Source: an uncultured Gemmatimonadaceae bacterium
GTDB taxonomy: Bacteria > Gemmatimonadota > Gemmatimonadetes > Gemmatimonadales > Gemmatimonadaceae
NCBI GenBank assembly: GCA_963716745.1
Contig: OY970320.1
Coordinates: 2,656,001-2,720,000 of the forward strand
Direction of reading: 5' to 3'
Length of the DNA stretch: 64,000 nucleotides
Below are positions 3,185 through 21,325 of the stretch, piece after piece; within the stretch, counting starts at the first letter, position 1, and each line of letters begins with the position of its first letter. A program made the translations under genes and the position numbers. A model generated the notes under the pieces. That model ran no database searches. It saw nothing but the letters and a program-made list of their open reading frames with translations, and was not told the DNA's origin.

Positions 3185-3892
3185 ATGGACCGCCCCGCCC
3201 AGCCGGCCGTCGAGTGCATTGCCCTCGCCCATCGCTTCGGCCCGAAATGGGCGCTGCGTGGGATCACGATGCGCATCGCGGCAGGCGAGATCGTCGCGGT
3301 CACGGGCAACAATGGCAGCGGCAAGAGTACGCTGCTGCGCGTCGTCGCGACGGCCCTGCGTCCCTCCCGCGGCTCGGCGCGCGTGTTCGGCCATGACGTG
3401 CGAACGGACGCGGCTTCAGTGCGCGGAATGTGCGCGCTCGTGGGGCACGCGAGCGGGGTGTACGCCGACCTCACCGTGCGCGAGAACCTGGGATTCGCGA
3501 TGCGCATGAGCGGCGAGTCGATGGACGACGCGCGCATTGCCGCCGCGATCGAGCGCGTGAATCTCGCCCACGAGGCCGATACCCGCGCCCGCGACCTCTC
3601 CGCCGGCCAGCAGCGCCGCGTCTCGCTCGCGCGCGTGATGCTCCGCGATGTGCAGCTGCTGTTGCTCGACGAACCGTACACGAGCTTCGATGAAGAAGGC
3701 ATTGCGCGCGTGAATGAACTGCTCCGCGAACTGCGCGCGCGCGGCGGCTCGGCGCTCGTGATCACGCACGATCTCGACCGCACCCGCGCGGTGATGGACC
3801 GCGCGATCCGCCTCGACGCCGGCATGCTCCACGAGCCGTCGCTCACGCCCACCGGCGCGATGCCGGCCTTCCGCCTGGCGAGCCGTGGCTGA
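3185..3892 (+). CDS. ccmA: Heme ABC exporter ATP-binding protein CcmA
   Basis: GNNGSGKST Walker A, LSAGQQRRVSLAR signature, LLLLDEPYTSFD; first gene of the ccm operon. Confidence 0.92.
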   Translation: MDRPAQPAVECIALAHRFGPKWALRGITMRIAAGEIVAVTGNNGSGKSTLLRVVATALRPSRGSARVFGHDVRTDAASVRGMCALVGHASGVYADLTVRENLGFAMRMSGESMDDARIAAAIERVNLAHEADTRARDLSAGQQRRVSLARVMLRDVQLLLLDEPYTSFDEEGIARVNELLRELRARGGSALVITHDLDRTRAVMDRAIRLDAGMLHEPSLTPTGAMPAFRLASRG

Positions 3893-4581
3893 GCGCGCGT
3901 GGTCGCGCGAATTCGCGCGCATGGGCGCGGTGGCGTGGAAGGATCTCGCCGTCGAGCGCCGCTCCAAGGCGAGCGTGAACGCCGTGCTCTTCTTCGCCGC
4001 GCTCACGCTGCTCCTCTTCGGTTTCGCCCTCGGCGCCGACACCGACGCGCTCAAGTCCGCGAGCGCCGGCATGCTCTGGCTCACGGTGCTGTTCTCGGGC
4101 GTGCTCGTGTTCAACCGGTCGTACGAGACGGAACTCGACGGCGGCGCGCTCGAGGTGCTGCTGCTCTATCCCGGGCGAGCGCTGGTCGATCTTCGCCGGC
4201 AAACTCATCGCGAATCTCGCGTTCGTGCTCACGGTAGAAGTCGTGACGCTTCCAGTAGCGGTGGTGCTCTATCACATGCCGCTCGCCAACGCGCCGTGGG
4301 GCGTGGCCGGCGTCATGCTGCTCGGCACGATCGGTTTCGTCACGCTCGGCACGTTCTACGCGGCGATGGCGAGCCGGCTGCGCTCGCGCGAAGTGCTGCT
4401 GCCGCTGCTGCTCTTCCCGATGCTCGTGCCCGTGCTCATCGCCGCGGTGCAGGCGACGCAGGCCATGCTCCTGGGCGATGCGATGGGCGACAGCACGACC
4501 TGGGTGCGCCTGCTCGTGGTGTTCGATGTCATCTTCCTCGTCGCCGCGGTGCTGGCGTTCGAGCACGTGATCGAAGGGTGA
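3885..4581 (+). CDS. ccmB: Heme exporter protein CcmB (frameshift near 4180)
   Basis: WKDLAVERRSK...LFGFALG...GMLWLTVLFSG joined to SREVLLPLLLFPMLVPVLIAAVQAT. Confidence 0.9.
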
Positions 4582-4585
4582 TGCG

Positions 4586-5282
4586 ATGAGCGAAAGCAAG
4601 CGCAAGCCGGTCTTGATCCTCGTCACGGCGCTGCGTGCTCGCGGCGCTCGCCGCCGCGCAGTGGTGGGCGGTGAGTCACTCCGCGCCGGACCGCGACATG
4701 GGCGATCTGCAGAAGATCATGTACGTGCACGTGCCGAGCGCGTGGAGCTTCTTCGTGGCGTTCTTCATCGTGCTCGTCGCGAGCGGGATGTACCTCGCGA
4801 CGCGCGACGAGCGCTACGACCTGATCGCGGCGAGCGCCGCCGAGGTGGGCGCGGTGCTCACCGGGCTGGCGCTGGTGACGGGCTCGATCTGGGGGCGCTC
4901 GACGTGGGGCACGTGGTGGACATGGGACGCGCGCCTCACCAGCACGGCGGTGCTGTTCCTGATCTATCTTGGGTACCTGTCGCTGCGCGCCGCGATCGAC
5001 GACACCACCGTGCGCGCGCGGTGGAGCGCCGCCGTGGGGATCCTTGGCGCGATCAATGTCCCGATCGTATACATGTCGGTGCGCTGGTGGCGCACGCTGC
5101 ACCAGGTGCAATCGAGTCCGAGCACCGTGGCGGGATCGTACGTGACGTCGCTGCGACTGAACGCGGTGGTGATGCTGATGGTGACGGCATGGTTCATCCT
5201 CGCGCGCTACCATGCGGCGATGATCGAGCGCGCGGCGGGCGCGCTGGCGGAGGAAGCGGCGCTCGGTGGGAGGCGGTCATGA
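4586..5282 (+). CDS. ccmC: Heme exporter protein CcmC (frameshift near 4635)
   Basis: KIMYVHVPSAW, WWD domain GSIWGRSTWGTWWTWDARLTS, VRWWRTLHQ. Confidence 0.93.
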
Positions 5283-5425
5283 GCGGTGAATGGAGCTATG
5301 TGACGGCGGCGTACGCGGCGGCGTGGATCTGCTTCGTCGGCTATGCCGTGCGTCTCGTGCGGATCACCATGCGGGCGCGCCGCGACTACGACGCGGCGCG
5401 CGACGCACTGGTGCGATCGCTATGA
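5279..5425 (+). CDS. ccmD: Heme exporter protein CcmD
   Basis: 48 aa MSGEWSYVTAAYAAAWICFVGY..., single TM plus basic tail, ATGA overlaps with both ccmC and ccmE. Confidence 0.75.
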   Translation: MSGEWSYVTAAYAAAWICFVGYAVRLVRITMRARRDYDAARDALVRSL

Positions 5426-5869
5426 CCAGCACGAAGAAGGCGTTGATCATCGGCGGCGGAGTGATGTTCGCGGCCGCATTCGCCTATCTCCTGTTCGGCG
5501 GGATCGGGAACAACCTCGTGTACTTCCTCACGCCGTCGGAGTTGCTCGCGAAAGGACCGGCGGCGTACGACACGCCCGTGCGGCTCGGCGGGCAAGTGGT
5601 GCCGGGCAGCGTGGTGTGGGATGCGCCGAACGTCGACCTGCGATTCACGATGCAGGACGGCAAGGCGCAGGTGATGCGTGCACTCGCGCGGCGCGCCGCC
5701 GCAGATGTTCCGCGATGGGATCGGGGTGGTGGTCGAAGGCAGATATTCGGCGAAGGGCACCTTCGAGGCGACGAATCTCCTCGTGAAGCACTCGAACGAG
5801 TACAAGCCGCCGAAGGCTGGGCAGGATCCGTCGGAGATGTACAAGTCGCTCATGAAGGGAGGCGCGTAA
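5422..5869 (+). CDS. ccmE: Cytochrome c maturation protein CcmE (frameshift near 5678)
   Basis: NLVYFLTPSEL, VRLGGQVVPGSV, PPQMFRDGIGVVVEG, heme-binding KHSNEY (HxxxY). Confidence 0.92.
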
Positions 5870-7903
5870 TGCTGAACGCGATCGGCTCGAGCGCGCTCAT
5901 CGTCGCGCTCGCGATCTCGGTGTTGGGCCTCGTGGCCGCGGCGGCCGGCGGAGTGCGCCGCAACGCGGCGTTCGTCCGCGCCGCCTACGCGGCGGCGTAC
6001 GTGAACTTCGCCCTGCTCGCGATCGCGGCCGGCACGATGATCACCGCGCTCGTGACGCACGATTTCAGCGTGAGCTACGTGGCGCAGGTGGGCAGCCGCT
6101 CGACGCCGATGCTCTACACCGTCATCTCGCTCTGGGGCGCGCTCGAGGGATCCATCCTCCTCTGGGGCCTGGTGCTCACCGGCTACACCGCCGCGGTGGT
6201 GTACCTCAATCGCGGCCGCGCGGGGCAGCTGCTGCCCTTCGCGACCGCGACGCTCTTCGGGATCGCGACCTTCTTCCTGATCCTGCTCGTGGGCCCGGCG
6301 AATCCGTTCCACACGGTGTTCCCCGTGCCCCCCGACGGTCCGGGGCCGAACGTGCTGCTTCAGAACCATCCGCTGATGGCCATCCATCCGCCGTTCCTCT
6401 ATCTCGGCTACGTCGGCATGAGCGTGCCGTTCGCCTTCGCGATCGGCGCGCTGCTCTCCGGCGAGACGGACGGCGACTGGATCCGCACGACGCGGCGCTG
6501 GACGATGGTCGCGTGGGGCTTCCTCGGCTTCGCGATCGTCGCCGGGATGTGGTGGAGCTACGACGTGCTCGGCTGGGGCGGCTACTGGGCCTGGGATCCG
6601 GTGGAGAACGCGAGCTTCATGCCGTGGCTCACCGCCACCGCGTTCATCCATTCGGAGATCGTCGAGGAGCGGCGCGGCATGCTGCGCGTGTGGAACATGA
6701 CGCTCATCGTCGCGACGTTCATCCTCACGATCCTCGGCACCTTCCTCACGCGCAGCGGCATCCTGAGTTCGGTGCACGCCTTCGCGGAAGGCGTCGTGGG
6801 CTACTACTTCCTCGGATTCATCGCGCTCGTGCTCATTGGCTCGATGATCCTGCTCGCGGGGCGGAGCAATTCGCTCAAGAGCACGGGCCAGCTCGACGCG
6901 ATCGCGAGCCGCGAGACGGTGTTCCTCTTCAATAATCTGCTGCTCTGCGGCTTCATGTTCACGGTGCTGCTCGGCACGCTCTTTCCGCTCGTCGCCGAGG
7001 CGATCCGCGGCGTGAAGGTGAGCGTGGGCGCGCCATTCTTCAACACGATGACGCTGCCGATCGTCGCCGCGCTTGCTGCTGCTCATGGGCGTGGGGCCGG
7101 CGCTGCCGTGGCGGAGCGCGACGAAGGAGCAGGTGCAGCGCCAGCTGATCCCGCCAACGGTGATCATGGTGATCGTGATCGTAGGCAGTCTCGTGGCCGG
7201 GCTCCGCCAGCCGTACGCGATCGCGGCGTTCGCGTTCGGCGCGTTCGCGATCACGGCGAACCTGCGCGAGTACTGGCGCGGCGCGCGGGCGCGCATGCGC
7301 GCGCAGGGGGAGAACTTCTTCGTCGCGCTCGCGCGACTCGTGCAGGGGAACCGACGGCGCTACGGCGGCTACCTCGCGCATCTCGGCGTGCTCACCCTCG
7401 CGCTCGGCGTGACCGCGAGCAGCGCGTTCCGCATGGAGCGTGAGGCGACGATCAAGCCCGGCGGCACGATCACGCTCGCGGGGTACACCGTGCGCCTCAA
7501 TGAGATGTGGGGACGCGAGGAGCCGCAGCGCGTGGTGGTGGGCGCGAGTCTCTTCGTGGAGCGCGGCGGCAAACGCATCGGCACGCTCGATCCGCGTCTC
7601 AATTATTTCCGGACGTCCGAGCAGCCGGTGGCGACGCCCGCGGTGCGGAGCCGCGCGGACGCCGATCTCTACGTGAACCTCATGGCGTTCGAGCGCGACG
7701 GATCGTCCGCGACCTTCCGCGTGCTCGTGGAGCCGCTGGTGGCATGGATCTGGGCGGGCGGGATGATCGTCGCGCTGGGCGCGCTGGTGTGCGTCTGGCC
7801 CGGCGCCGCGGCTCCCGCGTGGGTGCCGGCCGGCATGCGTCGCGCGCGCGCCGAGGCCGTTGAGGAGGAGGAGCCTGCCGTGGCGACGGAAGGCGCCGCG
7901 TGA
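5869..7903 (+). CDS. ccmF: Cytochrome c heme lyase CcmF (frameshift near 7075)
   Basis: DFSVSYVA, WGALEGSILLW, LLQNHPLMAIHPPFLYLGY, GWGGYWAWDPVENASFMPWL, SSVHAFA, RRYGGYLAHLG. Confidence 0.95.
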
Positions 7904-8487
7904 ACTGGAAGCGCGCGCTCGTCGCTTTGCTGTGCGCGATCCCGATCATCGCGCTCCTCGCCTTCGGAATGACGCGCGACCCGCGCGAGATCCCGAGTCC
8001 GCTCCCGGGCAACGAGGCGCCGAAGTTCGCGCTGGCCGTCTTCTCCTTCCCGGCGAACGCGCCGGCGGCGCAGGCGAAGGCGGCCGAGCTGCTCAAAGAC
8101 ACCGTGCGTCTCGATACGCTCCGCGGGAAGGTCGTGGTGCTCAATTTCTGGGCGAGCTGGTGCCTGGCGTGCCGCGATGAGCACACCGCGCTCTCCGAGG
8201 CCGCGACCGCGCTCAAAGGCACCGATGCGCGTTTCTTCGGCGTGCTCTACCAGGACGTGCCGCAGAACGGCCGCGACTGGATCAAGCAGATGGGCGGGCA
8301 ATCATATCCTGGATTGTTCGATCCCAAGTCACGCACGGCGATCGATTACGGACTGTACGGCGTGCCGGAGACGTTCTTCATCGGGCGCGACGGCCGGGTC
8401 GCGTACAAGCACGTGGGCGCGGTGCCGATGGACGTGATCATGGGCACGGTGCAGAAGCTGCTCGCCGAGCAGCCGGGGGCGCGGTGA
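7900..8487 (+). CDS. ccmG: Thiol:disulfide interchange protein CcmG/DsbE
   Basis: N-terminal TM, IPSPL, VLNFWASWCLAC, YGLYGVPETFFI. Confidence 0.9.
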   Translation: MNWKRALVALLCAIPIIALLAFGMTRDPREIPSPLPGNEAPKFALAVFSFPANAPAAQAKAAELLKDTVRLDTLRGKVVVLNFWASWCLACRDEHTALSEAATALKGTDARFFGVLYQDVPQNGRDWIKQMGGQSYPGLFDPKSRTAIDYGLYGVPETFFIGRDGRVAYKHVGAVPMDVIMGTVQKLLAEQPGAR

Positions 8488-8919
8488 TCGTGCGGTGCGC
8501 GGCTCGGCGGACGCTGTGCTTCGCTCTGGCGGCGCTTGTGTCATCTCGTTGCATTCTCATAGTGCGGCCTGTCAGGGCGATTCCCGACTGGATGACTCGG
8601 TGACGGGCGGTCGCATTCGCAATTGCGATGCCCCGTGTGCCAGGGCGAATCGATCCAGGATTCGCCATCGGGACTCGCGAAGGAAATGCGAGATGTGGTG
8701 CGCGAGCAGCTGGCCGCGGGCCGGTCGAGCGAAGAGGTGAAAGCGTATTTCGTGAGCAAGTACGGCGAGTGGATCCTGCTGGAGCCGAAGGCGCACGGCG
8801 CGAACCTCACGGTGTATCTGTTGCCGTTCGTGATGTTGCTGGGCGGTGCATCGCTGATCGTGATCGCGGTCCGGCGATGGACGCGACCGAGCGCGGTGTC
8901 GCAGTCGGAGTCGCCGTAG
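8484..8919 (+). CDS. ccmH: Cytochrome c biogenesis protein CcmH (5' part garbled by indels)
   Basis: LRCPVCQGESIQDS...AKEMR...YFVSKYGEWILLEP followed by a TM; start approximate. Confidence 0.87.
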
Positions 8920-8967
8920 ATCGACGGTCGCGACGCTCGTGGTCCTCAGATCCAGCGGAGGAGCGCC

Positions 8968-10445
8968 ATGAGATCATTCCCTCGTTCGAGTCTGCACTTG
9001 CTCCGCGTGGCGGCGTTCGCGGCGCTGGGGCTCATCGGCTGCACGGAGACCGTATACAAGGACTTCCCCGGTTTCGCGCCGCCGCCGTCGGGCGCCGGCG
9101 AATACCTCGGCTACACGAGCGGCTCTGGACCCGCTGCCCGGTGTGCGGCAACTGCCACGCGAGCCACCAGGCGCTCTGGACTCACCGCCAAGCACTCGAA
9201 GGCGTGGGCGAATCTCCAGGCGAGCGGGCACGCGGCGCCGGAGTGCGGCGTATGCCACTCCGTGAGCACGCTCGGCAATGACACGGGCGCGGCGCGGTTC
9301 GGCTACCAAGGTTCGCCGAGCGAGCGCTATCAGGACGTGCAGTGTGAGGCGTGCCATGGCCCGGGACAGAATCACGTAGAGAATGCGGAGGTCGATCGCG
9401 AACCAGCCCATCCCATCGATCTACGTGGCGGCGGGACTGAATTCGAGTTGCAGCGGATGCCACACCGGCGAGCACCAGCCGTTCGTGGAGGAGTGGTCGC
9501 AGTCGGCGCACGGGATCGTGCCGCACTTCGCGAATGGCGCCGGCAACACGTCGTGCCAGCCATGCCATACGGGGCAGGTGGCGCTCACGGCCACGATGGG
9601 CGTCACGAACACCGTGTACAAGGAGATCAACAACCCGCTCACGACGCAGGGGCCGAACGGCGCGCTCACGATCGTGTGCGCGGTGTGTCACGATCCGCAC
9701 GGCAGCCCGAACCTTGGCCAGACGCGTTTCCCGGTGGACACGGTGGATGTGGCCACGAATCTCTGCGCGCGTTGTCACAACCGGCGGTCGGTGCCCGATC
9801 AGAGCGGCAACAAGGGTCCGCACGCGCCGGAAGGTCCGCTCCTCATCGGCAACAACGATGTGGGCTGGCGGCCGCCGAACATGACGCAGGACAACATCCA
9901 CGGGTCGCACGGCGATACGCTGGTGAACTCGAAGCTCTGTGCCACGTGCCACATCTTCAAGAGCCAGAGCACCGATTCGTCGGGCATCACGTTCTTCTCG
10001 ACGGGCCATCTGTTCCTCGCGATCCCGTGCGTCGATGCGAACGGGAAGCCGCTGCCGACCGATTGCGCGGAGGCGAACCGCACGTTCAACGCGTGCGCGA
10101 CCTGCCACGGCGTCGGGCGCGGTCGCGAAGAGCCTGATGGACAACGAGGTGCTCATCATCAACGGGCTGCTCAACACGATGTACGGCATCCTGACGAACC
10201 AGGCGAAGATCCCGTGCTCGCAGTACACATCGACGTCGGGTGCGCCGTGGACCACCGCGCGCGGCGCCCGATTCAATTATCTGCTCGCGGCGGAATCGGG
10301 GAGCGCCGTCGCCGGCCAAGCGTGCGGGAGCGATCTCGCGCTGCCGCCCGCGGTGAGCAAGCTCGGCTCGGCTGTGCACAACGTGCCGCTCATGGAGCAG
10401 CTGCTGATCAACAGCATCGACCAGCTGAATCAGGACTACCCGTAG
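8968..10445 (+). CDS. Multiheme (~9 CxxCH) lipoprotein cytochrome c, OmcB-like C-terminus (frameshifted)
   Basis: Lipobox LGLIGC; across frames CGNCH, CGVCH, CEACH, CSGCH, CQPCH, CAVCH, CARCH, CATCH, CATCH; C-terminal GARFNYLL...AVHNVPLMEQLLINSIDQL. Confidence 0.85.
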
Positions 10446-10456
10446 AGCGAACCTGC

Positions 10457-10486
10457 TTGACGGGAAGGGCCCGCGACTGCACTCAT
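10457..10486 (+). promoter_or_regulatory. Possible sigma70-type promoter upstream of the NapC-like gene
   Basis: TTGACG at 10457-10462; the -10 region (TGcactcat) is a weak match. Confidence 0.25.
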
Positions 10487-10562
10487 AGAGGCAGGTCGCA
10501 TCCGCACCGGGGGGCGTTCAGCTCCCCGGCCGCGCATTGGAGCCCACGCTCGGGAGACGCGA

Positions 10563-12393
10563 TTGATCCAGCAGATCGCTCAGTCGCTCCCGGATTCAGT
10601 CCGCGAAGTCACGGTGGTGAAGACGCCGATTCCCGGCGGCGTCGGCGTGTTCGTGCGCTGGCTGATGAACCTGCCGAGCTGGATCCAGATCACGGCGTGC
10701 TGCGATCGCGGCGGTGATCGGCATCGTGGTGCTCCGGTATCTCTGGAAGCGGCGCAAGGCGATCTGGGCATGGTTCACGACGCGCTCGCGCGGCACCAAG
10801 ATCGCGATCGGCGGCCTCGTCACCGCCGGTCGTGGCGGCGGTTCATCGCGTTCGGCGCGGTGTAGTGGCACTACATGATGCACAACAACGAATTCTGCAG
10901 CAGCTGCCACGTCATGACGAGCGCGTACTCGCGCTTTCAGCATAGCGAGCACAGCAAGCTGCAGTGCCACGATTGTCACGTGCAATCGATCTTCGTGAGC
11001 GCGCGGCAGCTCGTGCTCTGGGTGGCGGAGAAGCCGCAGGTGATCCCGCCGCACGCGAAGGTGCCGAACAAAGTGTGCGGCGAGTGCCACCTCCAGAAAC
11101 CGGGACAGGACAGCATCTGGAAGCGGATCAGCGCCACCGCGGGCCACCATCTGCATCTCAATTCGACCAAGCCGGCGCTCAAGGACATGCAGTGCACCAC
11201 GTGCCACGGCGTGGACGTGCATCACTTCGCGCCGGAGAACGCGTCGTGCGGACAGGCGGGGTGCCACGATAACCTGCCGATGAAGCTCGCGAAGATGAGA
11301 GACCAGACCGAGCTCCATTGCACGAAATGCCATCAGTTCACGCTCCCGGTGGCGGAGAACATCAGCATCGATTCCGCGAAGCAGGCATTGAATCCGACGT
11401 TCGGCCAGTGTGTCGGCTGTCACGACATGAAGAAGGCGCTGGGCAACTACGATCTCGCAGCGGACCCGCACAAGGGCGTGTGCGGCTCGTGCCACAATCC
11501 GCATACGCAGGAAACGCCGCAGGCCGCGTGGACGCTCGTGCGCGAACTCGGGCTGCCACGAGAATGCGGTGACGCTCACGCCGTTCCATAAGGGGATCGC
11601 GGCTGCGGCGCTGCAAAAGTGCTCGACGTGCCACCAGGCGCACACGTGGGCGGTGAGCGGCGACAAGTGCATCGTCTGTCACTCGCGCATCTACGAGGAC
11701 CGGCCGGCGGCCGCGACCGCGAATGCCGGCGGTACGCCAGCGCGGCTCGCCTCGTCAGGCGGCGCGCCGGCGTACTCGGGCTCCGAGAAATTCTCGCACA
11801 ACCGGCATCGCGGTGTCACGTGCACGTCGTGCCATGGCACGGGCACTGCGCACGGGGCGCTGTTGGTAAAGACGGAGGCGGATTGCCAGCGCTGCCACCA
11901 TTCGACGGCGGCGGGCGGCGCGATGTCGGGCGCGCCGGCGCGCACGTGCACGAGCTGTCACGCGTCGGCCAGCTTCGCACGGCGATCGCGGAGACGCTCA
12001 CGGTGAAACTCTCCGTGTGGAAGGCGCCGCGCGCGAGAGTGCTCGCGTTCCCGCACGACCAGCACAGCTCGGTGGCCTGCGTCTCGTGCCACTCGACGCC
12101 CGTGACGATGGCGGTGCCGGCCGAACGGGAACTGCGCGAGCTGCCACGAGAAGCATCACACGCCCGACAACCGCTGCATGTCGTGCCACACCACGCCCAA
12201 GGCCGCGCACACGCGTGAGGCGCACCTCGGGTGCCAGAGCGCGCAGTGCCATGCGCCGCAGTCGGTGTCGGCGTTGAAGCCGCAGCGCAACGTGTGCCTC
12301 ACCTGTCACTCCGACAAGGTGAATCACAAGCCGGGCAAGGAGTGCGCGGCGTGCCATCAGGTGGAGTGGCTCACGGCACAGAAGGGCACCTGA
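10563..12393 (+). CDS. Membrane-anchored NapC/NirT-like multiheme cytochrome extended with cytochrome c3-like domains (~20 heme motifs; frameshifted)
   Basis: Two hydrophobic segments after frame repair, then WHYMMHNNEFCSSCHVM...HSEHSKLQCHDCH (NapC/NirT-type N-terminus); 17 CxxCH plus 3 CxxxxCH (CGQAGCH, CANSGCH, CQSAQCH) across frames; ends CAACHQVEWLTAQKGT*. Confidence 0.82.
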
Positions 12394-12395
12394 TC

Positions 12396-13856
12396 GTGCG
12401 CGCACGTTCGGCGTTCGCGGCGATGGCATCACTGGCCGTCATCGTGCTGTCCGGCGCCGCGCAGGAGATCCGCTTCGGCGGGGCGACCGTGGGGCAGGTG
12501 ATCCAGCTGCCCACGCTCGTGATCGACAGCGTGCCGATCGGCGCGACCACCGGCAGCGGGAACTACCGGCAGACGTCGAACGGATACGTGGCGTGGTGTC
12601 CGTCGACCACCGGCTACTGCTTCTATCATCGCTCCGGACCGACGATCACCACGTCGCCGCTCACGCAGGACCTCGAGGTCAACGCCTTCGGATTCGGGCA
12701 GGGGTTGCGCTTCTACGCCGACGTGCGGTTGCGCGTCACCGGCGGGAATCAGGCGTGGCCGCTCTCGGGACAGACGTTCTCCGCGCTCGCCGCCTATCTC
12801 GAGTACGATCGCAGCGATTGGCGCGCGCGGCTCGGGCGGCAGTTCACGTCCAACGGGCTGGGCTACTACAACTACGACGGCCTCGAGGTGCTCTGGCGCG
12901 CGACCCCGTGGATCGATGCGCAGCTCTACGGCGGCGGCGCGCTCATGCAAGGCGTGAACGCGCCGTACACGAACTCCGTGATCACCGATCCGCAGTCGCC
13001 GCCGCTGCCGAATGACAACGCGTGGCTCATCGGCGCGCGCGTGCGCGGCCACTGGCAGAACGGATCGTCGATCTCGGCGCTCTTCCAGGTGATCGATCGC
13101 GACGACTTCGGCGGCCTGTACTCCGAGCGGCTCGCGGTGAACGGTGTCTTCCATGCGGGGATCACGACGATCACCGCCGACGTGCAGGCCGATCTCGCCA
13201 CCAACCAGTTCGATCTCGCGCAGGCGCGGGCGCAGTATCCACTCGCGCGCGGGACCGGCGTGTTCCTCGAGGTGCGCCACTTCGTGCCGGTGTTCGAACT
13301 GTATTCCATCTGGAGCGTATTCTCGCCCGTCGGCTACAACGAGCTCACCGGCGGCGCCTTCTGGGCGTCGCACGACGGTGTGCTCAGCGCACAATTCGGC
13401 GGCGGATATCGCAGCTACGAGCCGACGAACGCGGGCACGGGCGATCTCACGACGAACGGTTGGCGCATCGGCGCCAATGCCACGTGGCAGGCGATCCCGA
13501 AGCTCATTGTGAGAGGCGGCTATCATTACGATCTCGGGCCGGGCGCCGCCGAGAGTGATGGCAATCTCTCCGCACGCTGGGAGCCGAACGAGGACACGTA
13601 CGCGGGCGTCTTCGCGACGGCGTTCCAGACCGCCTACGAGTATCAGCAGGGGTTCGGCACCGTGTTCGGCGGCGGTGTGACCGGGGGGATGAAGCTCGCC
13701 GACTGGGGTCGTGTGGCGGCGGACATCGGCGAGTTCCGGAACACATACGGCGGCAACGCGCCGCAGTCGAACTGGAATCAGTTCCGCGCGCTGCTGCGAT
13801 TCGACTTCCTCGTCGGGAAGGAGCCGGGCTACGCGGGCGGCGGGGTGGTGCGATGA
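12396..13856 (+). CDS. Putative outer-membrane beta-barrel (porin of a porin-cytochrome complex)
   Basis: Signal peptide VRARSAFAAMASLAVIVLSGAAQ; many alternating aromatic/Gly strands (AAYLEYD, RARLGRQF, IDAQLYGG, LSAQFGGGYRSY, LIVRGGYHYD, FRALLRFDF); no CxxCH; flanked by multiheme genes. Confidence 0.75.
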   Translation: MRARSAFAAMASLAVIVLSGAAQEIRFGGATVGQVIQLPTLVIDSVPIGATTGSGNYRQTSNGYVAWCPSTTGYCFYHRSGPTITTSPLTQDLEVNAFGFGQGLRFYADVRLRVTGGNQAWPLSGQTFSALAAYLEYDRSDWRARLGRQFTSNGLGYYNYDGLEVLWRATPWIDAQLYGGGALMQGVNAPYTNSVITDPQSPPLPNDNAWLIGARVRGHWQNGSSISALFQVIDRDDFGGLYSERLAVNGVFHAGITTITADVQADLATNQFDLAQARAQYPLARGTGVFLEVRHFVPVFELYSIWSVFSPVGYNELTGGAFWASHDGVLSAQFGGGYRSYEPTNAGTGDLTTNGWRIGANATWQAIPKLIVRGGYHYDLGPGAAESDGNLSARWEPNEDTYAGVFATAFQTAYEYQQGFGTVFGGGVTGGMKLADWGRVAADIGEFRNTYGGNAPQSNWNQFRALLRFDFLVGKEPGYAGGGVVR

Positions 13857-15364
13857 GGATCGGCCTCGCATTCGTGGCCGCGCTGGCGAGCGTGGCGTTC
13901 GCCGCGCGCGCGCAACAGCCGGCCGTGTTCCCGCACGCGGCGCACGCCAAGGTGTTCCCGTCGTGCACGGGGTGCCACGCCGGCATCGTGAGTGGCGATG
14001 CGAAGACCGTGTTCCCGGCGCCGCAGGCATGCGCCGGATGTCACGACGGACAGCAGACCGTCGAGGGGCGCGTGCTCAAGCCGGTGGCGTACACCGGTGG
14101 GAAATACCTCGTGACGAACTTGAAGTTCTCGCACGTGGATCACGCGCGCGAGACGAACACTACCGGGAGCACGCGCGCGTGCGTGAGCTGTCACCAGCTG
14201 CCGGGTACCACCGAGTTCATGGCGGTGAGCGGTCCGGTACCGTCGGAATGCCTTGCGTGTCACGCGCACGAGGCGCCGAGCCATCTCGCCGACGTAGCGC
14301 AGTGCCGCACATGCCACGTGCCGCTCGCGAGCGCGACGTCGCTCAGTGCTGATGCGATCGCAGGATTCCCAAAGCCGGCGTCGCACGACGCGCCGGGATT
14401 CCTCTCGTCGCATGCGCCGCAGGACAGCGCGGCCGTCGCGCGCTGCGCCGTGTGCCACACGCAGGAGAGCTGCGCGCGTTGTCACATGCAGCCGCCCGCG
14501 ACCGCGCAGATCGCGATGCTCGGCAATAGCGCCATGGTGGCGCAAGCGATCGCGGGCAAGCATGCGGTTTATCCGGTGCCGGCGAGTCACGCCGCGAACG
14601 ATTTCGCGGCGACGCACGGCGCCGCGGCGACGGCGAATCCGGCGTCGTGCGCGAATTGTCACGCACAGGCGAGTTGCAAGACGTGCCACCTGCAGCTCGG
14701 CGCGCGCGCCGTGATCGCACAGTTGCCCACGCCGGCGCCGGGACACGCGCAGGGTGTGCAGCTGCGCAGCGCGAGTGATTTCGCGCTGTTCGCGGCCGTC
14801 GCGTTCCGTGCGCCGTCCAAGAATCCGGCGCGCGGCCGGCCCGACATCTGGACCGTGCGCGTGCACGATCCCGGCTTCTCAAGGAATCACCGCGCCGCCG
14901 CGGCGTCGGCCACGCAGAATTGTCTCGGCTGCCACCAGAAATCGTACTGCGCCGATTGTCACGACGGCGTGGGCAAGCTGAAGTACCATTCCGCGGATTT
15001 CGCGATGGGCCACGCCGCGCAGGCGTACGGCCGCGAGCAGGACTGCGCGAGTTGCCACAATACGCAGGCGTTCTGCCTCACGTGCCACCAGAACCTCGGG
15101 CTCGGCTCGACGGGCCGCGCGGACGGGTCGGTGCACAACGCGTCCGCGAACTGGCTGTTGCAGCACGGCGAAGCGGCGCGGCTGTCGCTGCCGAACTGCA
15201 TTACGTGCCACAAGCAGAGCGACTGCATCAAGTGCCACTCCACCACCACGTGGGGGATCAATCCGCACGGGCCGGACTTCAACGCGGATCGCATGGCGAA
15301 GGCCAACACGCAGATCTGCTACTACTGCCACGTGACGAATCCGGTGGCGAACAAGACACACTAG
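13853..15364 (+). CDS. Periplasmic 16-heme cytochrome c (cytochrome c3-like N-terminus plus doubled-CxxCH repeats)
   Basis: Sec signal ending ARA-QQ; 16 CxxCH motifs counted in one intact frame; FPHAAH and FSHVDH motifs. Confidence 0.92.
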   Translation: MRIGLAFVAALASVAFAARAQQPAVFPHAAHAKVFPSCTGCHAGIVSGDAKTVFPAPQACAGCHDGQQTVEGRVLKPVAYTGGKYLVTNLKFSHVDHARETNTTGSTRACVSCHQLPGTTEFMAVSGPVPSECLACHAHEAPSHLADVAQCRTCHVPLASATSLSADAIAGFPKPASHDAPGFLSSHAPQDSAAVARCAVCHTQESCARCHMQPPATAQIAMLGNSAMVAQAIAGKHAVYPVPASHAANDFAATHGAAATANPASCANCHAQASCKTCHLQLGARAVIAQLPTPAPGHAQGVQLRSASDFALFAAVAFRAPSKNPARGRPDIWTVRVHDPGFSRNHRAAAASATQNCLGCHQKSYCADCHDGVGKLKYHSADFAMGHAAQAYGREQDCASCHNTQAFCLTCHQNLGLGSTGRADGSVHNASANWLLQHGEAARLSLPNCITCHKQSDCIKCHSTTTWGINPHGPDFNADRMAKANTQICYYCHVTNPVANKTH

Positions 15365-15867: not shown

Positions 15868-16563
15868 CTATGACGCCGCGTGCTCGGCGAGCGCGAGATC
15901 CTCGCGGCGCACGGAGCGCAGCGCGAGTGAGAACACGGAGCCGAACGCGCGCGCGACTTCGGCGCGCACCTGTGCATCATCGGCGCGAGCTACGCCGAGC
16001 TCGCGGGCGATGGAGGTCATCGTGACGTCGGGGATCCCGCACGGGACGATGAGTTCGAAGTAACTGAGGTCCGTGTTCACATTGAGCGCGAAGCCGTGCC
16101 ATGTGACCCAGTCGCGCGCGTGCACGCCGATGGACGCGATCTTCCGCCCGCGCGTCCACACGCCGGTCTTGCCCGAGTTCCGCTCAGCGGGAATGCCGAG
16201 CGCGCCGAGTGCGACGATGAGCGCCTCTTCCACCTGGCGCAGGTACCAGTGGAGATCCTGCTTGTGCCGCTTGAGGTCGACGATCGGATAGCCGACGAGC
16301 TGCCCCGGCCCGTGGAAGGTGATGTCCCCGCCGCGCTCCACTTCGAACACCTCCACGCCGCGCGCGCGCAGCGCCTCCGGCGTCGCGAGCATGTTCGCTT
16401 CCTTCGCGGTGCGCCCGAGGGTGACGACCGGCGGATGTTCGAGCAGGATGAGCAGGTCTTCGGCGATCTCGCCCGAGATCCGCGCGCGCGCCGCAGCGCG
16501 CTGGAATTCCAGCGCCTCGCCATACGGCACGAGCCCGAGCTCCGCCACGAGCAGGTCACGCAT
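15868..16563 (-). CDS. lipB: Lipoyl(octanoyl) transferase LipB
   Basis: LLEHPPVVTLGR, ERGGDITFHGPGQLVGYP, RKIASIGV, WHGFALNV, IVPCGI. Confidence 0.96.
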   Translation of the reverse strand: MRDLLVAELGLVPYGEALEFQRAAARARISGEIAEDLLILLEHPPVVTLGRTAKEANMLATPEALRARGVEVFEVERGGDITFHGPGQLVGYPIVDLKRHKQDLHWYLRQVEEALIVALGALGIPAERNSGKTGVWTRGRKIASIGVHARDWVTWHGFALNVNTDLSYFELIVPCGIPDVTMTSIARELGVARADDAQVRAEVARAFGSVFSLALRSVRREDLALAEHAAS

Positions 16564-17957
16564 CGGTCATGCGACCCATCGAGTCGAGCGCCGCCTGCGC
16601 CACCGCCTCCGCCATGGTCGGATGCGCATGGATCGCCAACTCGATCTCTTCAACGGTCAGCTCGCTCTCGCGCGCCACCGCCAGCTCGTGAATGAGTTCC
16701 GTCGCATGCGCGCCGATGATGTGCGCGCCCAGGATCTCGCCGTACTTCGCGTCGCGAATGATCTTCACGAAGCCCTCGGTCTCGCCCGCGGTGCGCGCGC
16801 GCCCGCTCGCCATGAAGGGGAACTTGCCCACCTTGTACGCGATCCCCTTGTCCTTCACCTGCTGCTCGGTCATCCCGATGGACGCGACCTCGGGATGGCA
16901 GTACGTCGCGCCCGGGATGTTCCCGTAGTTCACCGGATGCGACTCGTGTCCCGCGATCAGCTCCACGGCCACGACACCCTCGCGCGAGCCCTTGTGCGCG
17001 AGCATCGGCGGGCCGGCCACATCGCCGATGGCGTAGATGCCCTTGGCGGTCGTCTCCATGCGCTCGTTGATCTTGATGAAGCCGCGATCGGTGAGCTGCA
17101 CGCCGGCTTCCTTGAGCCCAATGTTCTCGACGTTCGGCGCGCGCCCCGCGGCCACGAGCACTCTCTCCACGGTGATCTCCTTCTTCTCCGGCGCGTCGAG
17201 CACGAGGGTCACGCTGTCCTTGCCCACTTTCGTGCTCGAGATGCGCGCGCCCGTGATGATCTCGATCTTCCGCTTGCGGAAGCTCTTCGCGAGTTCGGCG
17301 CCCACCTCGGCGTCCTCCACCGGCAGCAGCGTCGGCAGCACTTCGATCAGCGTGACCTGCGTGCCGAAACTCGTGAACACGTCCGCGAACTCGCACGCCC
17401 ACGGCGCCGGCGCCGATCACGGCCATCGTCTTCGGCGCTTTCTCGGCGATCAGCACTTCGTCGCTCGAGAGCACTGTGCTCTTGTTAATCTCGAGCCCGA
17501 TCTGCGGCAGCCCCTTCACGCGCGAACCGGTCGAGATGATCACGGCCTTCGTGGCGTCGTGCTTCTCCGTCTTCCCATCGGCGGTCTTCACGTTCACGGA
17601 CTTGCCGCCCGCCAGCGTGCCGGTGCCCTTGATCCAGGTGATCTTGTTCTTCTTGAAGAGGAACTCGACGCCCTTGGAATTCTGCAGGCTCACCGCGCGC
17701 GAGCGCTTCATGGCCACGCCGTAGTCGGTGGTCACCTCGCCCACGTTGACGCCGAACTCGGCCGCGTGCTTCAGGCGATTCGCGAGCGCCGCGCTCTCGA
17801 GGAGCGCCTTGGCCGGGATGCATCCCCAGAGCACGCAGGTGCCGCCGAGCCCTTCGCGCTCGACCATCGCGACGTTGAGCCCGAGCTGTGCGCCGCGGAT
17901 CGCGCCGACGTAGCCGGCGGGCCCGCCGCCAATGAAGATCACATCATAGGTCGCCAT
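16556..17957 (-). CDS. lpdA: Dihydrolipoyl dehydrogenase E3 (frameshift near 17400)
   Basis: [46 protein letters not shown]. Confidence 0.95.
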
Positions 17958-17984
17958 GAGAGATTCCGGCCGGAGTTGGTGTGG

Positions 17985-19265
17985 TTAGTAGACGAGCATG
18001 AGCGGGTTCTCGAGCAGGCGCCGCAGCGTTTGCAGGAATTTCGCGCCCGTGGCGCCGTCGATCGCGCGATGGTCGCAACTCATCGTGACGCGCAGATGTT
18101 TTGCGACGGCAACGGCGCCGTCGATCACGACCGGCACATCGCTCACCGCGCCGATCGCGAGGATGCCGCGTCTCGGGCGGATTGATGATCGCGGTGAACT
18201 GATCGATGCCGAACATGCCGAGATTCGAAACGGAGAACGTCGAGCCAGTGTATTCCTCGGGCTTGAGCTTGCGGTCGCGCGCGCGTGCGGCGAGCTCGCG
18301 CGATTCCTTCGCGATCTCGCGCAGACGCTTCTGGTCGGCGTCGAAGATCACCGGCGTGATGAGACCGTCCGTCGGATCGCGACCGCCATGCCGAGGTGCA
18401 CGCGGTTGAAGCGGCGGATCTTGTCGCCGAGCCAATGCGCGTTGACTTCGGGGTGCTGCGCGAGCGCGGTGGCGGTGGCCTTCAGGATGATGTCGTTGAA
18501 GGACACCTTGAACTCGTCGCCCACCTCGGCCATCGCGGAGCGCATTTCGGCGACGCGACTGAGATCGAACTCGGCGGTGAGGTAGAACGTCGGGATCGGT
18601 CCGATCGATTCCGCGAGGCGGCGGGCAATGGTCTTGCGCAACTGACTCAGCGGCACGTCTTCGAAGCCAACGCCAGGGGCGGACTGTCGGCTGTTGGCTG
18701 TCGCAGGCGACTGCGACTGCGTGCCGGCGGATTCGATGTCGCGCTTGATGATGCGGCCGCCGGGGCCGGAGCCCTGGAGCTGGTCGAGTGCGACGCCGCG
18801 TTCGCTCGCGAGACGACGCGCGAGGGGCGAACTCCGCAGGCGTCCGCCGGATTCCGCGGCGTGTGGCGCTTGCTCGGTGCGAGCGGCCGCGGGAGTGGAG
18901 GGCGGCGCCGCGGGCGCGGGAGGAGGCGATGCTGGTCTCGGCGGCGCGGTCGGAGTGGGAGCGGGCGCGGCGGCCGCAGCAGGCGCGGGGGCGGCGGCGC
19001 TGCCGGCGATCGCGTCGATGTTCTCGTCGGGGGTGCCGACGATCGCGAGGAGTTCGCCCACCGGGCGCGTCTCCCCTTCGGCGGCGATGATCTTGCGCAT
19101 CACGCCGTCGCCGCGCGCGACGATCTCCATCACCGCCTTGTCGGTCTCCACCTCGGCGAGCACTTCGCCCTTCGTGACCTTGTCGCCCTCCTTCTTGGTC
19201 CACTTCACCAGCTTGCCTTCTTCCATGGTGGGAGAAAGCGCTTCCATCACGACTTTGGTGGCCAT
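17985..19265 (-). CDS. pdhC: Pyruvate dehydrogenase E2 dihydrolipoamide acetyltransferase (frameshifts near 18175 and 18375)
   Basis: [15 protein letters not shown] lipoyl site, SPLARRLA E3-binding domain, [31 protein letters not shown]. Confidence 0.93.
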
Positions 19266-19283
19266 GGCTAGACTCCCGCCGGC

Positions 19284-20261
19284 TTAGACATAGAGCACCT
19301 TCTTCACCGCCGCGATCGTCTTCGCGAGATCGGGCTTCGCGGCCTTCTCGAGATTCTTGGCGTACGGCATCGGCACGTCGGCCTGGTGCACGCGCACCAC
19401 CGGCGAGTCGAGATCGTCGAAGCATTCGCGCTGGATGAAATCCACCACCTGCGCGCCAATGCCGCAGATCTCCCAGCCTTCCTCCACCACCACCGCCCGG
19501 TTGGTCTTCTGCACCGAGGCGGCGATCGTCGCGACATCCATTGGACGAAGCGAGAGCAGGTCGATCACCTCGACCGAGATGTTCTCCTTCGCGAGCGCGT
19601 CGGCCGCCTGCTGCGCGACGAGCACCATCTTCCCGTACGAGATGATCGAGCAGTGGTCGCCCGCACGCTTCACCTGCGCCTTGCCGATCGGGATCGTGAA
19701 ATCGCCGTCGGGCACTTCGCCCTTCGTGTTATAGAGCATCTCGCCCTCGAGCACGATCACGGGATTGTCATCGCGGATCGCGGACTTCAGCAGCCCCTTC
19801 GCGTCGTACGGCGTACCAGGCGCCACCACCTTGAGTCCGGGAATGTGCGCGAGCCAGCCCTCCCACGCCTGCGAGTGCTGCGCCGAGAGTTGCAGCGCGG
19901 CGCCGTTGGGTCCGCGGAACACCATGGGAATGTTGTACTGGCCACCGCTCATGGAGAGCAGCTTCGCGGCCGCGTTCACGACCTGATCGAGCGCGAGGAG
20001 CGCGAAGTTCCACGTCATGAACTCGATCACGGGACGCAGTCCCACCATCGCCGCGCCAACGCCCACGCCGGCGAATCCGAGCTCGGTGATCGGCGTGTCC
20101 ACCACGCGCATCTCGCCGAATTCCTGCAGCAGCCCCTTGCTCACCTTGTACGCACCGTCGTACTCGCCCACTTCCTCACCCATGAGGAAGACGCGGTCGT
20201 CGCGCTGCATTTCTTCGCGGAGCGCCTGGTTGAGCGCATCGCGGTACGTGATGATCGCCAC
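19284..20261 (-). CDS. pdhB: Pyruvate dehydrogenase E1 beta subunit
   Basis: [38 protein letters not shown]. Confidence 0.96.
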
Positions 20262-20263
20262 GG

Positions 20264-21292
20264 TCAGCCCGCCACCGGGGCCGCGTGGCCCCTATCGCTG
20301 GTGGTGTCGGTGGTGATGTCCTCCCAGAGCGCCTCCACCGGCGGCTCGGGGCTCGCGTCGGCGAATTGCCACGCGTCCTCGCACACCGCTTTTACTTCTT
20401 CGTCCATCTTCGCGTAGTCGGCGTCGGACCACTCGCCGTTCTCCTGCATCTCGGCCTTGAGCACCATGATCGGATCGCGCTTCATCTCGCGATCGAGCTC
20501 TTCCTTGCTGCGATACGTGCCGCTCACCGCGTCGGACATCGAGTGTCCCATGAAGCGGTACGTCTGGATCTCGAGCAGCGTGGGCGTGTTCTCGCGGCGG
20601 GCGCGCTCTACGGCGCGCATCGTCGCCTCGCGCACCGCCATCACATTCTGCCCGTCCACCGCTTCCTCGGGCATGTCGTACGAGTGCGCGCGCGTGGAGA
20701 TGTCCACCACCGCGCTGGCGCGCTCGAGCGCCGTGCCCATGCCGTAGCGGTTGTTCTCGATGACGAAGATCACCGGCAGCTTCCAGAGCGCCGCCATGTT
20801 CAGCGATTCGTGGAACGCGCCGGTATTCACGACCGACTCGCCGAAGAAGCACACGCACACCTGGTCGCCGCCGCGATACTTGATCGCGAAGCCGACGCCC
20901 GTGGCGAGCGGGAGATGGCCGCCCACGATCCCGTGGCCGCCCAGGAAATTCACGTTGCGGTCGAACAAGTGCATCGAGCCGCCCTTGCCCTTGGAGCAGC
21001 CGTCGGCGCGGCCGAACAACTCGGCCATGATCGCGCGCGGCGGGATCCCCTTCGCGAGCGCCTGGCCGTGCTCGCGATAGCTCGCGATCACATAGTCATC
21101 ATTGCGCAGCGCGGAGGTGACGCCGGCGCCGACGCCTTCCTGTCCAATGTAGAGGTGGCAGAAGCCGCCGATCTTTCCGAGCGCGTACGCCTCGCCCACG
21201 CGCTCTTCGAACCGGCGCATGAGCATCATCTCGCGGAGCAACGCGCGGCGGAGGGGGGCGGCATCGGCCGCGTCGTTCTTCTTCTTTGCCAT
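20264..21292 (-). CDS. pdhA: Pyruvate dehydrogenase E1 alpha subunit
   Basis: KIGGFCHLYIGQE, GKGGSMH, ENNRYGMGT, YRFMGHSMSD. Confidence 0.96.
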   Translation of the reverse strand: MAKKKNDAADAAPLRRALLREMMLMRRFEERVGEAYALGKIGGFCHLYIGQEGVGAGVTSALRNDDYVIASYREHGQALAKGIPPRAIMAELFGRADGCSKGKGGSMHLFDRNVNFLGGHGIVGGHLPLATGVGFAIKYRGGDQVCVCFFGESVVNTGAFHESLNMAALWKLPVIFVIENNRYGMGTALERASAVVDISTRAHSYDMPEEAVDGQNVMAVREATMRAVERARRENTPTLLEIQTYRFMGHSMSDAVSGTYRSKEELDREMKRDPIMVLKAEMQENGEWSDADYAKMDEEVKAVCEDAWQFADASPEPPVEALWEDITTDTTSDRGHAAPVAG

Positions 21293-21325
21293 GTGTGTGG
21301 TTGGTGGACCGTGGCCAGGCCGCGG

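Follow-up and report, generated by a model that had tools for sequence, protein, structure and literature searches.

The 64,000-nt stretch of DNA analysed here (hereafter, the window; part of contig OY970320.1 of an uncultured Gemmatimonadaceae bacterium) carries four adjacent genes, for a nine-heme lipoprotein cytochrome, an anchored 20-heme cytochrome, a beta-barrel and an exported 16-heme cytochrome, which very probably encode an electron conduit through the outer membrane, in one direction or the other. The explanation that we favour, with moderate confidence, is a single envelope-spanning porin–cytochrome conduit that carries electrons mainly outward when oxygen is short. Judged from sequence, the locus is a real, strongly conserved and uncharacterised variant of the porin–cytochrome conduits. 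The four genes are as follows.

8968..10445, plus strand: nine-heme lipoprotein cytochrome; 9 CxxCH motifs; indels at about 9129, 9136, 9180, 9393 and 10112
10563..12393, plus strand: anchored 20-heme cytochrome; 17 CxxCH and 3 Cx4CH motifs; indels at about 10696, 10829, 10841, 11536, 11971 and 12122
12396..13856, plus strand: predicted outer-membrane beta-barrel of an unnamed family, from its AlphaFold2 model and fold matches; 0 heme motifs
13853..15364, plus strand: exported 16-heme cytochrome; 16 CxxCH motifs

They close a run of plus-strand genes (3185–15364) that opens with ccmA, ccmB, ccmC, a ccmD-like open reading frame (ORF), ccmE, ccmF, ccmG and ccmH. The original prediction for this DNA had described a ccm operon followed by a four-gene set with some 45 hemes; coordinates and strand agree, and counting across frames gave 45 heme-binding motifs in the four-gene cluster (9 + 20 + 0 + 16). 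Of 197 six-frame CxxCH matches in the 3.29-Mb genome, 42 sit within this 6.2-kb cluster, a density that is not due to chance. The tight coupling ascribed to the last three genes is seen in the 2-nt spacing between the anchored cytochrome and barrel genes and in the ATGA overlap of the barrel and 16-heme genes; the lipoprotein gene is flanked by gaps of 48 nt (5′) and 117 nt (3′).

A single-protein query with the barrel returned homologues in 132 of 301 Gemmatimonadota genomes, the genome itself included. By family the counts were 86/125, 19/70, 8/48 and 7/23, and three small families had none; the one weak match (E 3.9e-4) belongs to a distant cluster, L053, that was handled apart. The barrel is present in 24 of 41 near relatives, and a profile search returned 1045 representatives at E ≤ 0.001. 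The search of genome contigs gave one barrel locus, from an uncultured Gemmatimonadaceae bacterium at 96% identity. The named barrel homologues are Gemmatimonadota, in keeping with the host proposed earlier.

Gene order was surveyed, as had been suggested with the original prediction, in 61 loci hand-chosen from the match lists. Fifty-eight, from 55 genomes, were counted; those left out are L032 (heavily frameshifted, with all genes visible), L033 (a duplicate of L013) and L053. The genomes compared are kin, and the locus counts are not independent tests. A homologue of the 16-heme gene lies directly 3′ of the barrel gene in 58/58 loci (some cut by contig ends, split or of a 12-heme form), and the defining arrangement of porin–cytochrome systems, a barrel gene next to a multiheme cytochrome gene, is thereby found in all of them. 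Among the 51 loci with at least 5.5 kb of upstream sequence (hereafter, long loci), the lipoprotein was found in 47, the 20-heme gene adjoins the barrel in 38 and the full four-gene order is kept in 36. For the 20-heme protein, a search with its N-terminal module gave matches in 33 of 121 genomes (E ≤ 1e-25), all 33 of them barrel-positive; barrel-positive genomes that gave no such match include G007, G082 and G102. Four genomes (G182, G211, G321 and G131) carry two copies of the barrel cassette. Two loci recur below as references: L013, from a near-identical genome, and L014, from a congeneric one.

The barrel and the exported cytochrome

The AlphaFold2 model of the barrel, calculated with 98 sequences, has a predicted local distance difference test (pLDDT) score of 89.6 and a predicted template modelling (pTM) score of 0.82, and comprises 22 strands of at least 10 residues with no plug. 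The highest-scoring fold matches were barrel domains of TonB-dependent receptors (Z 18.2 with root-mean-square deviation (rmsd) 4.6 over 368 aligned residues); MtrB (6R2Q_B) was matched with Z 15.7 and rmsd 5.8 over 361 aligned residues, and further matches were to ushers and porins. No chain titled OmbB was among the fold matches, which excludes nothing. Together the model and its matches support a plug-less outer-membrane beta-barrel of about 22 strands as the product of 12396–13856, and the earlier description of this gene as encoding a beta-barrel devoid of heme motifs is borne out.

A search of Pfam and NCBIfam with the barrel sequence gave no match. None of the 98 members matches MtrB_PioB (PF11854), at most five of them touch a generic barrel family, and the barrel profile gave no match at E ≤ 1 against sequences in the PDB. 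MtrB_PioB was likewise not found in the genome itself, in a search whose control matched weakly, in 1 of 14 genomes. The three nearest clusters among the Atlas matches listed are unnamed and mostly Gemmatimonadota. Residues P274, W282 and F285 are invariant. A nearly invariant pair of cysteines, C44 and C51 (mature numbering; window 12468–12620), lies in the first loop, and beyond the last barrel strand a tail of some 13 residues is conserved.

A complex model of the barrel with a cytochrome, another check proposed earlier, was run on the 16-heme partner and scored 0.79, against 0.00 for the best of three controls. Of 157 solved complexes, 116 attained that mark, as did 2 of 215 mismatched pairs; these counts serve only as a rough guide where own alignments are used. 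The runs share at least 67% of contacts, with a partner pLDDT of at least 74. In the model, cytochrome residues from about 334 to 492, which hold hemes 10–16, touch alternating residues of most barrel strands, and the surest contacts join barrel residues 274–288, a segment that holds the three invariant residues, to cytochrome residues 442–447 with invariant A442 and R443. The complex model supports binding of the C-terminal half of the 16-heme protein within the barrel lumen, without showing such binding (the possible influence of solved MtrAB is weighed below).

Among 39 aligned members of the exported cytochrome, 38 have 16 hemes, and 12-heme forms occur in L042 and L048. Fifteen conserved spare histidines and one methionine are available for the 16 hemes, a count that fits a wire with no catalytic site. 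The protein has no match to TIGR03508 (the decaheme MtrA/DmsE family), and a plasmid collection held no match for it or for the L053 barrel.

The lipoprotein and the anchored cytochrome

All 49 lipoproteins compared have a lipobox cysteine. By the E. coli rule, aspartate at position +2 is the signal for retention in the inner membrane; it occurs in 1 of the 49, and aspartate at +3 in 25. In so far as that rule extends to this phylum, the lipoprotein thus appears to carry no such signal. Nine CxxCH motifs are present in 49/49, the NrfA active-site motif CxxCK in 0/49, and nine spare histidines are conserved for the nine hemes, a number that argues for full heme ligation. The expectation of an outer-membrane-type lipobox and no NrfA catalytic motif therefore held.

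Against solved structures, the lipoprotein profile gave its best matches to 6QVM (E 7e-19) and OcwA (6I5B; E 1.6e-17). The fold was modelled on the intact homologue from L014 (pLDDT 82.9; model calculated without hemes), and the closest structure was again OcwA (Z 16.4 with rmsd 3.7 over 333 aligned residues), followed by 6QVM (Z 15.3), the identity in these matches being 23%; the nitrite reductases 6V0A and 8RV0, both with Z 13.4, fell below these two. The modelled fold is that of the OcwA/NrfA superfamily, and the lipoprotein is proposed, from sequence, to act as the surface terminal redox protein. 6QVM is the S-layer undecaheme cytochrome of Carboxydothermus ferrireducens, which we take to be the protein named OmhA. 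OcwA, from Thermincola potens, shares with the lipoprotein its nine hemes, its NrfA-superfamily fold and a C-terminal helix bundle. Both OcwA and 6QVM are Gram-positive cell-wall proteins that work with no porin, and OcwA-type terminal reductases are so far known from Gram-positive cell walls. OcwA is a nine-heme terminal reductase at the cell surface, acting on iron oxides, nitrite and hydroxylamine, and it has two hemes of open coordination (PMC7096707); in the lipoprotein, spare histidines equal hemes in number. In L015 and L049, two tandem lipoprotein cytochrome genes precede the barrel, with no NapC-like gene in the fetched stretch.

The anchored cytochrome has hydrophobic helices at residues 43–61 and 80–98 of the L013 copy, flanking a basic loop; in a hydropathy scan of 41 members, 23 showed two hydrophobic segments, 11 a single one and seven had three. 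It matches PF03264 just over the cut-off (24.4 bits versus 24.1) and TIGR03153 below it (46.8 bits versus 134.2). The N-terminal module matches NrfH (E 1e-11 and, by profile against 2J7A_C, E 8.7e-10), and the rest of the protein resembles c7/c3-type chains (3OV0 and high-molecular-weight cytochromes). As in NrfH and the NapC/NirT proteins, a membrane helix is followed by CxxCHxM at heme 1, kept in 34 of 41 members, and by the S-x-H/CxxCH pattern of NrfH. Nineteen invariant spare histidines and the NrfH-type methionine are available for the 20 hemes. Spare ligands thus match hemes in number in all three cytochromes, as expected of wires. A second CxxCHxM lies near 11409–11430 (A2 alignment 248–254 in L014), its methionine invariant in 41/41, and a further invariant methionine occupies A2 alignment position 210, beyond the 19 invariant spare histidines.

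In L041, L043, L058, L045 and L071, a stand-alone copy of the C-terminal chain, with 9–10 hemes, lies immediately upstream of the barrel; a complete 20-heme gene may or may not be present farther upstream. This arrangement suggests that it is the C-terminal chain which links to the barrel complex in the periplasm. Five other loci (L057, L018, L048, L060 and L070) carry a 22-heme NapC-type protein instead, within an alternative upstream module (e.g. L057:3697-8368) of 9-, 22- and 11-heme cytochromes; the 22-heme protein of L057 keeps a lysine at the NrfH spacing. In L070 there is in addition a CbcL-like 19-heme protein with a fused cytochrome b part (28.6 bits, below cut-off, from a partial sequence), and in L048 a 19-heme protein judged by heme count. 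An inner-membrane redox module thus recurs in different forms.

The fold of the lipoprotein and the nature of its neighbour raise an alternative, which we consider improbable: the two could form a periplasmic reductase driven by quinol, resembling NrfHA and acting on nitrite, hydroxylamine or sulfur oxyanions, with the barrel and the 16-heme protein as an accessory branch. The modelled fold does belong to the superfamily of NrfA and octaheme nitrite reductases, its anchored partner is NrfH-like and encoded by the adjacent gene, OcwA itself reduces nitrite and hydroxylamine, and no NrfA was found elsewhere in the genome. A reductase of this kind is nonetheless hard to reconcile with the missing CxxCK, with nine conserved spare histidines for nine hemes and with the near-absence of aspartate at +2 (by the E. 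coli-type rule), and where no 20-heme gene adjoins the barrel, in L015, L042 and L049, the lipoprotein is still kept alongside it. Membership in NrfHA proper was rejected on the absence of CxxCK from the 49 lipoproteins and on the failure of the anchored module to show NrfH Lys82 and Asp89.

Relation to known conduits and direction of electron flow

The closest known arrangement is that of the porin–cytochrome (Pcc) clusters of Geobacter sulfurreducens (OmbB–OmaB–OmcB), Ignavibacterium album and Anaeromyxobacter, in which a porin is followed by a periplasmic multiheme cytochrome, with a lipoprotein cytochrome in addition. The comparison is indirect, through L053, rather than with OmbB, OmaB or OmcB sequences. 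This cluster (L053:3142-6588, genome G044, from another class of the phylum) encodes, in Pcc order, a 410-aa porin, a 14-heme cytochrome and a Cx4CH-rich lipoprotein, and in composition it agrees with what is described for the I. album cluster (PMC4245776). Alignment with hhalign relates the window barrel to the L053 porin (97.9%, E 3.8e-13) and the 16-heme protein to the L053 14-heme cytochrome (99.8%, E 1.3e-27). Since both members of the pair are homologous, the locus is probably a divergent Pcc relative rather than an unrelated architecture. The suggestion of a distinct architecture accordingly stands in so far as the locus is neither MtrAB nor PCC3/PCC4, and falls as regards a lack of kinship with known kinds. 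A search with the L053 barrel returned only eight relatives, and their names were uninformative. In the Atlas, proteins resembling the inserted domain occur in Myxococcota, Ignavibacteriota and Thermodesulfobacteriota; these are leads only.

The 22 strands of the model lie within the 18–22 predicted for Pcc porins, and 16 hemes exceed the observed range of 5–14, which is not a strict rule (both PMC4245776). The lipoprotein gene comes first here and last in Pcc clusters. A further difference is the 20-heme NrfH-like anchored cytochrome, encoded in the same orientation and in tight linkage. No Gemmatimonadota appear in the Pcc list in the covered part of PMC4245776.

MtrCAB with CymA (Shewanella, 6R2Q), MtoAB and PioAB resemble the locus in having a cytochrome inside a barrel (modelled here), a lipoprotein cytochrome and a NapC-family link to quinone (proposed here). 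The differences are an estimated 22 strands against 28 predicted for MtrB (PMC4245776), heme counts of 16, 9 and 20 against 10, 10 and 4, and a lipoprotein that is OcwA-like and not MtrC-like. The claim that the locus is unlike MtrAB/MtoAB agrees with the absence of MtrB_PioB matches among the 98 barrel members and in the genome. Membership in MtrAB, MtoAB or PioAB was rejected on these grounds, on the strand number and the 16 motifs, and on the missing TIGR03508 match. As described in part of the literature, MtrA cannot span the periplasm of about 200 Å and depends on shuttles, and CymA relies on soluble shuttles; the anchor here, unlike CymA, bears 16 extra hemes. PCC3 and PCC4 share with the locus a single-locus conduit, large heme counts and a proposed span of the whole envelope, but have an inner-membrane protein of five helices with HX13H that is missing here, a larger barrel, and heme counts (medians 34 and 21 for PCC3; 4, 5 and 10 for PCC4) unlike 9, 20 and 16 (PMC5566968). 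Both were rejected, as no gene for a five-helix protein of about 300 aa lies between ccmH and the cluster end and the heme counts differ. In ImcH, too, a NapC-like part is surrounded by additional helices and hemes (PMC6295460).

A literature search, in which few subscription papers were covered, yielded no description of this cassette. The covered table of PMC6295460 lists one CbcL-type and two ImcH homologues for Gemmatimonadetes and no CymA. Large multiheme cytochromes have been noted in Gemmatimonadota metagenome-assembled genomes (MAGs), with the cassette not described in the portions covered (PMC9769843, PMC9671151), and Fig. 6 of PMC13264449 draws porin–cytochrome clusters of a MAG set that includes Gemmatimonadota, the supplement of which gave 0 matches for 'PCC'.

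In the proposed path, menaquinol would be oxidised by the NrfH-like module of the anchored protein, and electrons would pass along the 16 further hemes of the same protein across the periplasm to the N-terminal half of the 16-heme protein. From there they would enter its C-terminal seven hemes, modelled within the barrel, and reach the nine-heme OcwA-like lipoprotein, whose fold is modelled and whose place would be the cell surface. Candidate acceptors are oxides of Fe(III) and Mn(IV), humics, electrodes and other cells.

Outward respiration is moderately favoured as the main use of the conduit, because the lipoprotein is closest to OcwA, a surface reductase of iron oxides, and because of the physiology of the host. 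MqnC and COX1 (aa3-type) score over their cut-offs in the genome; NrfA, clade II NosZ, NarG and RuBisCO were not found over theirs in the genome, which is 89.8% complete. Besides the locus, only two ORFs or operons have more than two CxxCH motifs: an operon at about 700000–708223 (minus strand, G000:C1) with a 5-heme cytochrome, labelled by inspection as alternative complex III, and an 8-heme ORF of 806 codons at 2956454–2958871 (minus strand, G000:C1), with no role assigned. No small soluble multiheme shuttle is among these few other multiheme ORFs, which fits a fixed wire. Close relatives were found in soil and rhizosphere metagenomes. From its gene content, the host is probably an aerobic, menaquinone-using heterotroph with one large multiheme system, the present locus, and such a host favours outward transfer under low oxygen.

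The same conduit could instead serve lithoheterotrophy and run mainly inward, with Fe(II), reduced humics, minerals or cathodes feeding menaquinone and, through it, alternative complex III and the aa3 oxidase. COX1, menaquinone synthesis and the operon read as alternative complex III would all serve this use, a quinol site that departs from NrfH is compatible with it, and Fe(III) reducers as well as Fe(II) oxidisers possess porin–cytochrome pairs and NapC-family proteins (PMC6295460). However, no RuBisCO was found in the genome, the nearest structures of the lipoprotein come from iron reducers, and electrons would have to move energetically uphill from Fe(II) to menaquinone. Reducing systems, moreover, typically have a surface lipoprotein cytochrome, which Fe(II)-oxidation clusters often lack (PMC4245776). 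On balance an inward main use appears rather unlikely.

We give little credence to a role as electron store, redox buffer or sensor under the fluctuating oxygen of soils, or in cell-to-cell exchange, in place of growth on minerals. Forty-five hemes in an otherwise multiheme-poor aerobe, the soil and rhizosphere origin of close relatives and the occurrence of Pcc clusters in non-reducers of Fe(III) or Mn(IV) oxides (PMC4245776) are in line with such a role, but storage has no need of a strictly linked outer-membrane barrel (58/58) or of a surface lipoprotein.

Several observations weigh against outward transfer through one envelope-spanning conduit. The score of the complex model may stem from likeness to solved MtrAB. 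In 13 of the 51 long loci no 20-heme gene adjoins the barrel, and in four there is no lipoprotein in the fetched stretch. OcwA, as noted, also reduces nitrite and hydroxylamine, and like architecture serves Fe(II) oxidation elsewhere (MtoAB), a precedent that makes direction unreadable from sequence. Exposure of surface cytochromes in Shewanella requires type II secretion (PMC3279761), and the two secretin loci of the genome score below the GspD cut-off; surface display of the lipoprotein is what we infer. Absences from the genome are provisional at its completeness. Finally, the quinol site departs from that of NrfH (residue numbers counted off a printed alignment): the nine residues holding Lys82 have no counterpart, being an insertion relative to the profile; of 41 members, 27 have Gln and six Glu opposite Asp89, and seven have no heme-1 methionine.

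Lys82 of NrfH, like Lys91 of CymA, binds quinol, and CymA requires the equivalent lysine (PMC2762525); Asp89 is quinol-binding in NrfH, and CymA itself does without Met49 and Asp89 (PMC3279761). The anchored protein also differs from NrfH (2J7A) in having 20 hemes rather than four, usually two helices (23/41) and no NrfA partner found in the genome. Because of the missing Lys82 segment and the mostly substituted Asp89, quinol oxidation by the anchored protein is plausible but not established. The link to the quinol pool that had been proposed is upheld as regards an NrfH-like anchor (PF03264 and 2J7A_C) and not as regards the quinol site.

A more specific version of the outward conduit is offered only tentatively: a hard-wired path that works with no shuttle, in which a single inner-membrane protein would join a quinol module with a non-standard site to a 16-heme extension that docks straight onto the barrel-embedded 16-heme protein, with an OcwA-type cap. 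If this were true, about two in five Gemmatimonadota genomes, many of them from aerobic soil heterotrophs, would belong to hidden respirers of minerals, humics and other cells. Members of the Gemmatimonadota abound in soils and sediments and are for the most part viewed as aerobic heterotrophs. A conduit in 132 of 301 genomes would imply an unrecognised role of the phylum in iron, manganese and humic redox chemistry, and would let its members go on respiring in anoxic microsites. As the barrel has no Pfam or NCBIfam family, it is missed by name-based annotation. With four genes in a single operon and a membrane anchor of its own, the design would also make a compact part for bioelectrochemical engineering.

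Integrity of the locus and its neighbourhood

Single-base indels break ccmB, ccmC, ccmE, ccmF, ccmH and the lipoprotein and anchored-cytochrome genes; the barrel and 16-heme genes are intact in the window. The indels look like assembly errors, because the broken genes are intact in L014 and, save for one break in the lipoprotein gene, in L013; because several, at 9129, 9136, 9180, 11536, 11968 and 12121, are missing from short-read contigs of close relatives (four soil/rhizosphere runs); and because the flanking lpdA and pdhC genes carry the same kind of frameshift split. Genuine frameshifts in a locus decaying in this strain would account for the number of indels relative to L013, at least five in the lipoprotein gene and six in the anchored-cytochrome gene. 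Decay is nevertheless very hard to square with like breaks in ccm genes, lpdA and pdhC, with the relatives' short reads, or with whole barrel and 16-heme genes whose ratios of nonsynonymous to synonymous substitution (dN/dS) against L013 are 0.08 and 0.047. The pseudogene reading was rejected on the intact copies of close relatives, the like breaks in neighbouring genes and the low dN/dS.

The ccm genes upstream are listed below.

3185..3892, plus strand: ccmA, heme exporter ATPase; TIGR01189 162.1 bits, above the cut-off of 131.6
3885..4581, plus strand: ccmB; PF03379 on both pieces; indel near 4175 relative to L013
4586..5282, plus strand: ccmC; PF01578; TIGR01191 166.7 bits, below the cut-off of 186; single genome copy; indel near 4633
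5279..5425, plus strand: ccmD-like small membrane protein, 48 aa; tentatively named from position and hydrophobic N-terminus; no Pfam match
5422..5869, plus strand: ccmE; PF03100 on both pieces; indel near 5676
5869..7903, plus strand: ccmF heme lyase; PF01578 and PF16327; single copy; indel near 7072
7900..8487, plus strand: ccmG/DsbE thioredoxin; PF08534; TIGR00385 100.6 bits, below cut-off
about 8484..8919, plus strand: ccmH; PF03918 109.6 bits; several indels in the 5′ part

The locus had been called self-contained, with a ccm operon of its own. That description was not sustained: the operon at 3185–8919 is the sole ccm operon of the genome and is therefore also housekeeping, and ccm genes other than ccmA were found within 14 of the 58 homologous loci. 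Their adjacency is incidental, and membership in the conserved module was rejected on both counts.

A scan for regulatory sites was uninformative, with two promoter-like sites against 0.8 expected and six terminator-like sites against 5.6 expected, and there are no tRNA genes in the window. Divergent from ccmA lies a minus-strand gene with a molybdopterin oxidoreductase domain (PF00174; 2136–3002). Downstream, on the minus strand at 15868–22240, a pyruvate dehydrogenase/lipoate cluster comprises lipA, pdhA, pdhB, pdhC, lpdA and lipB, with Pfam confirmation for pdhC, lpdA and lipB only.

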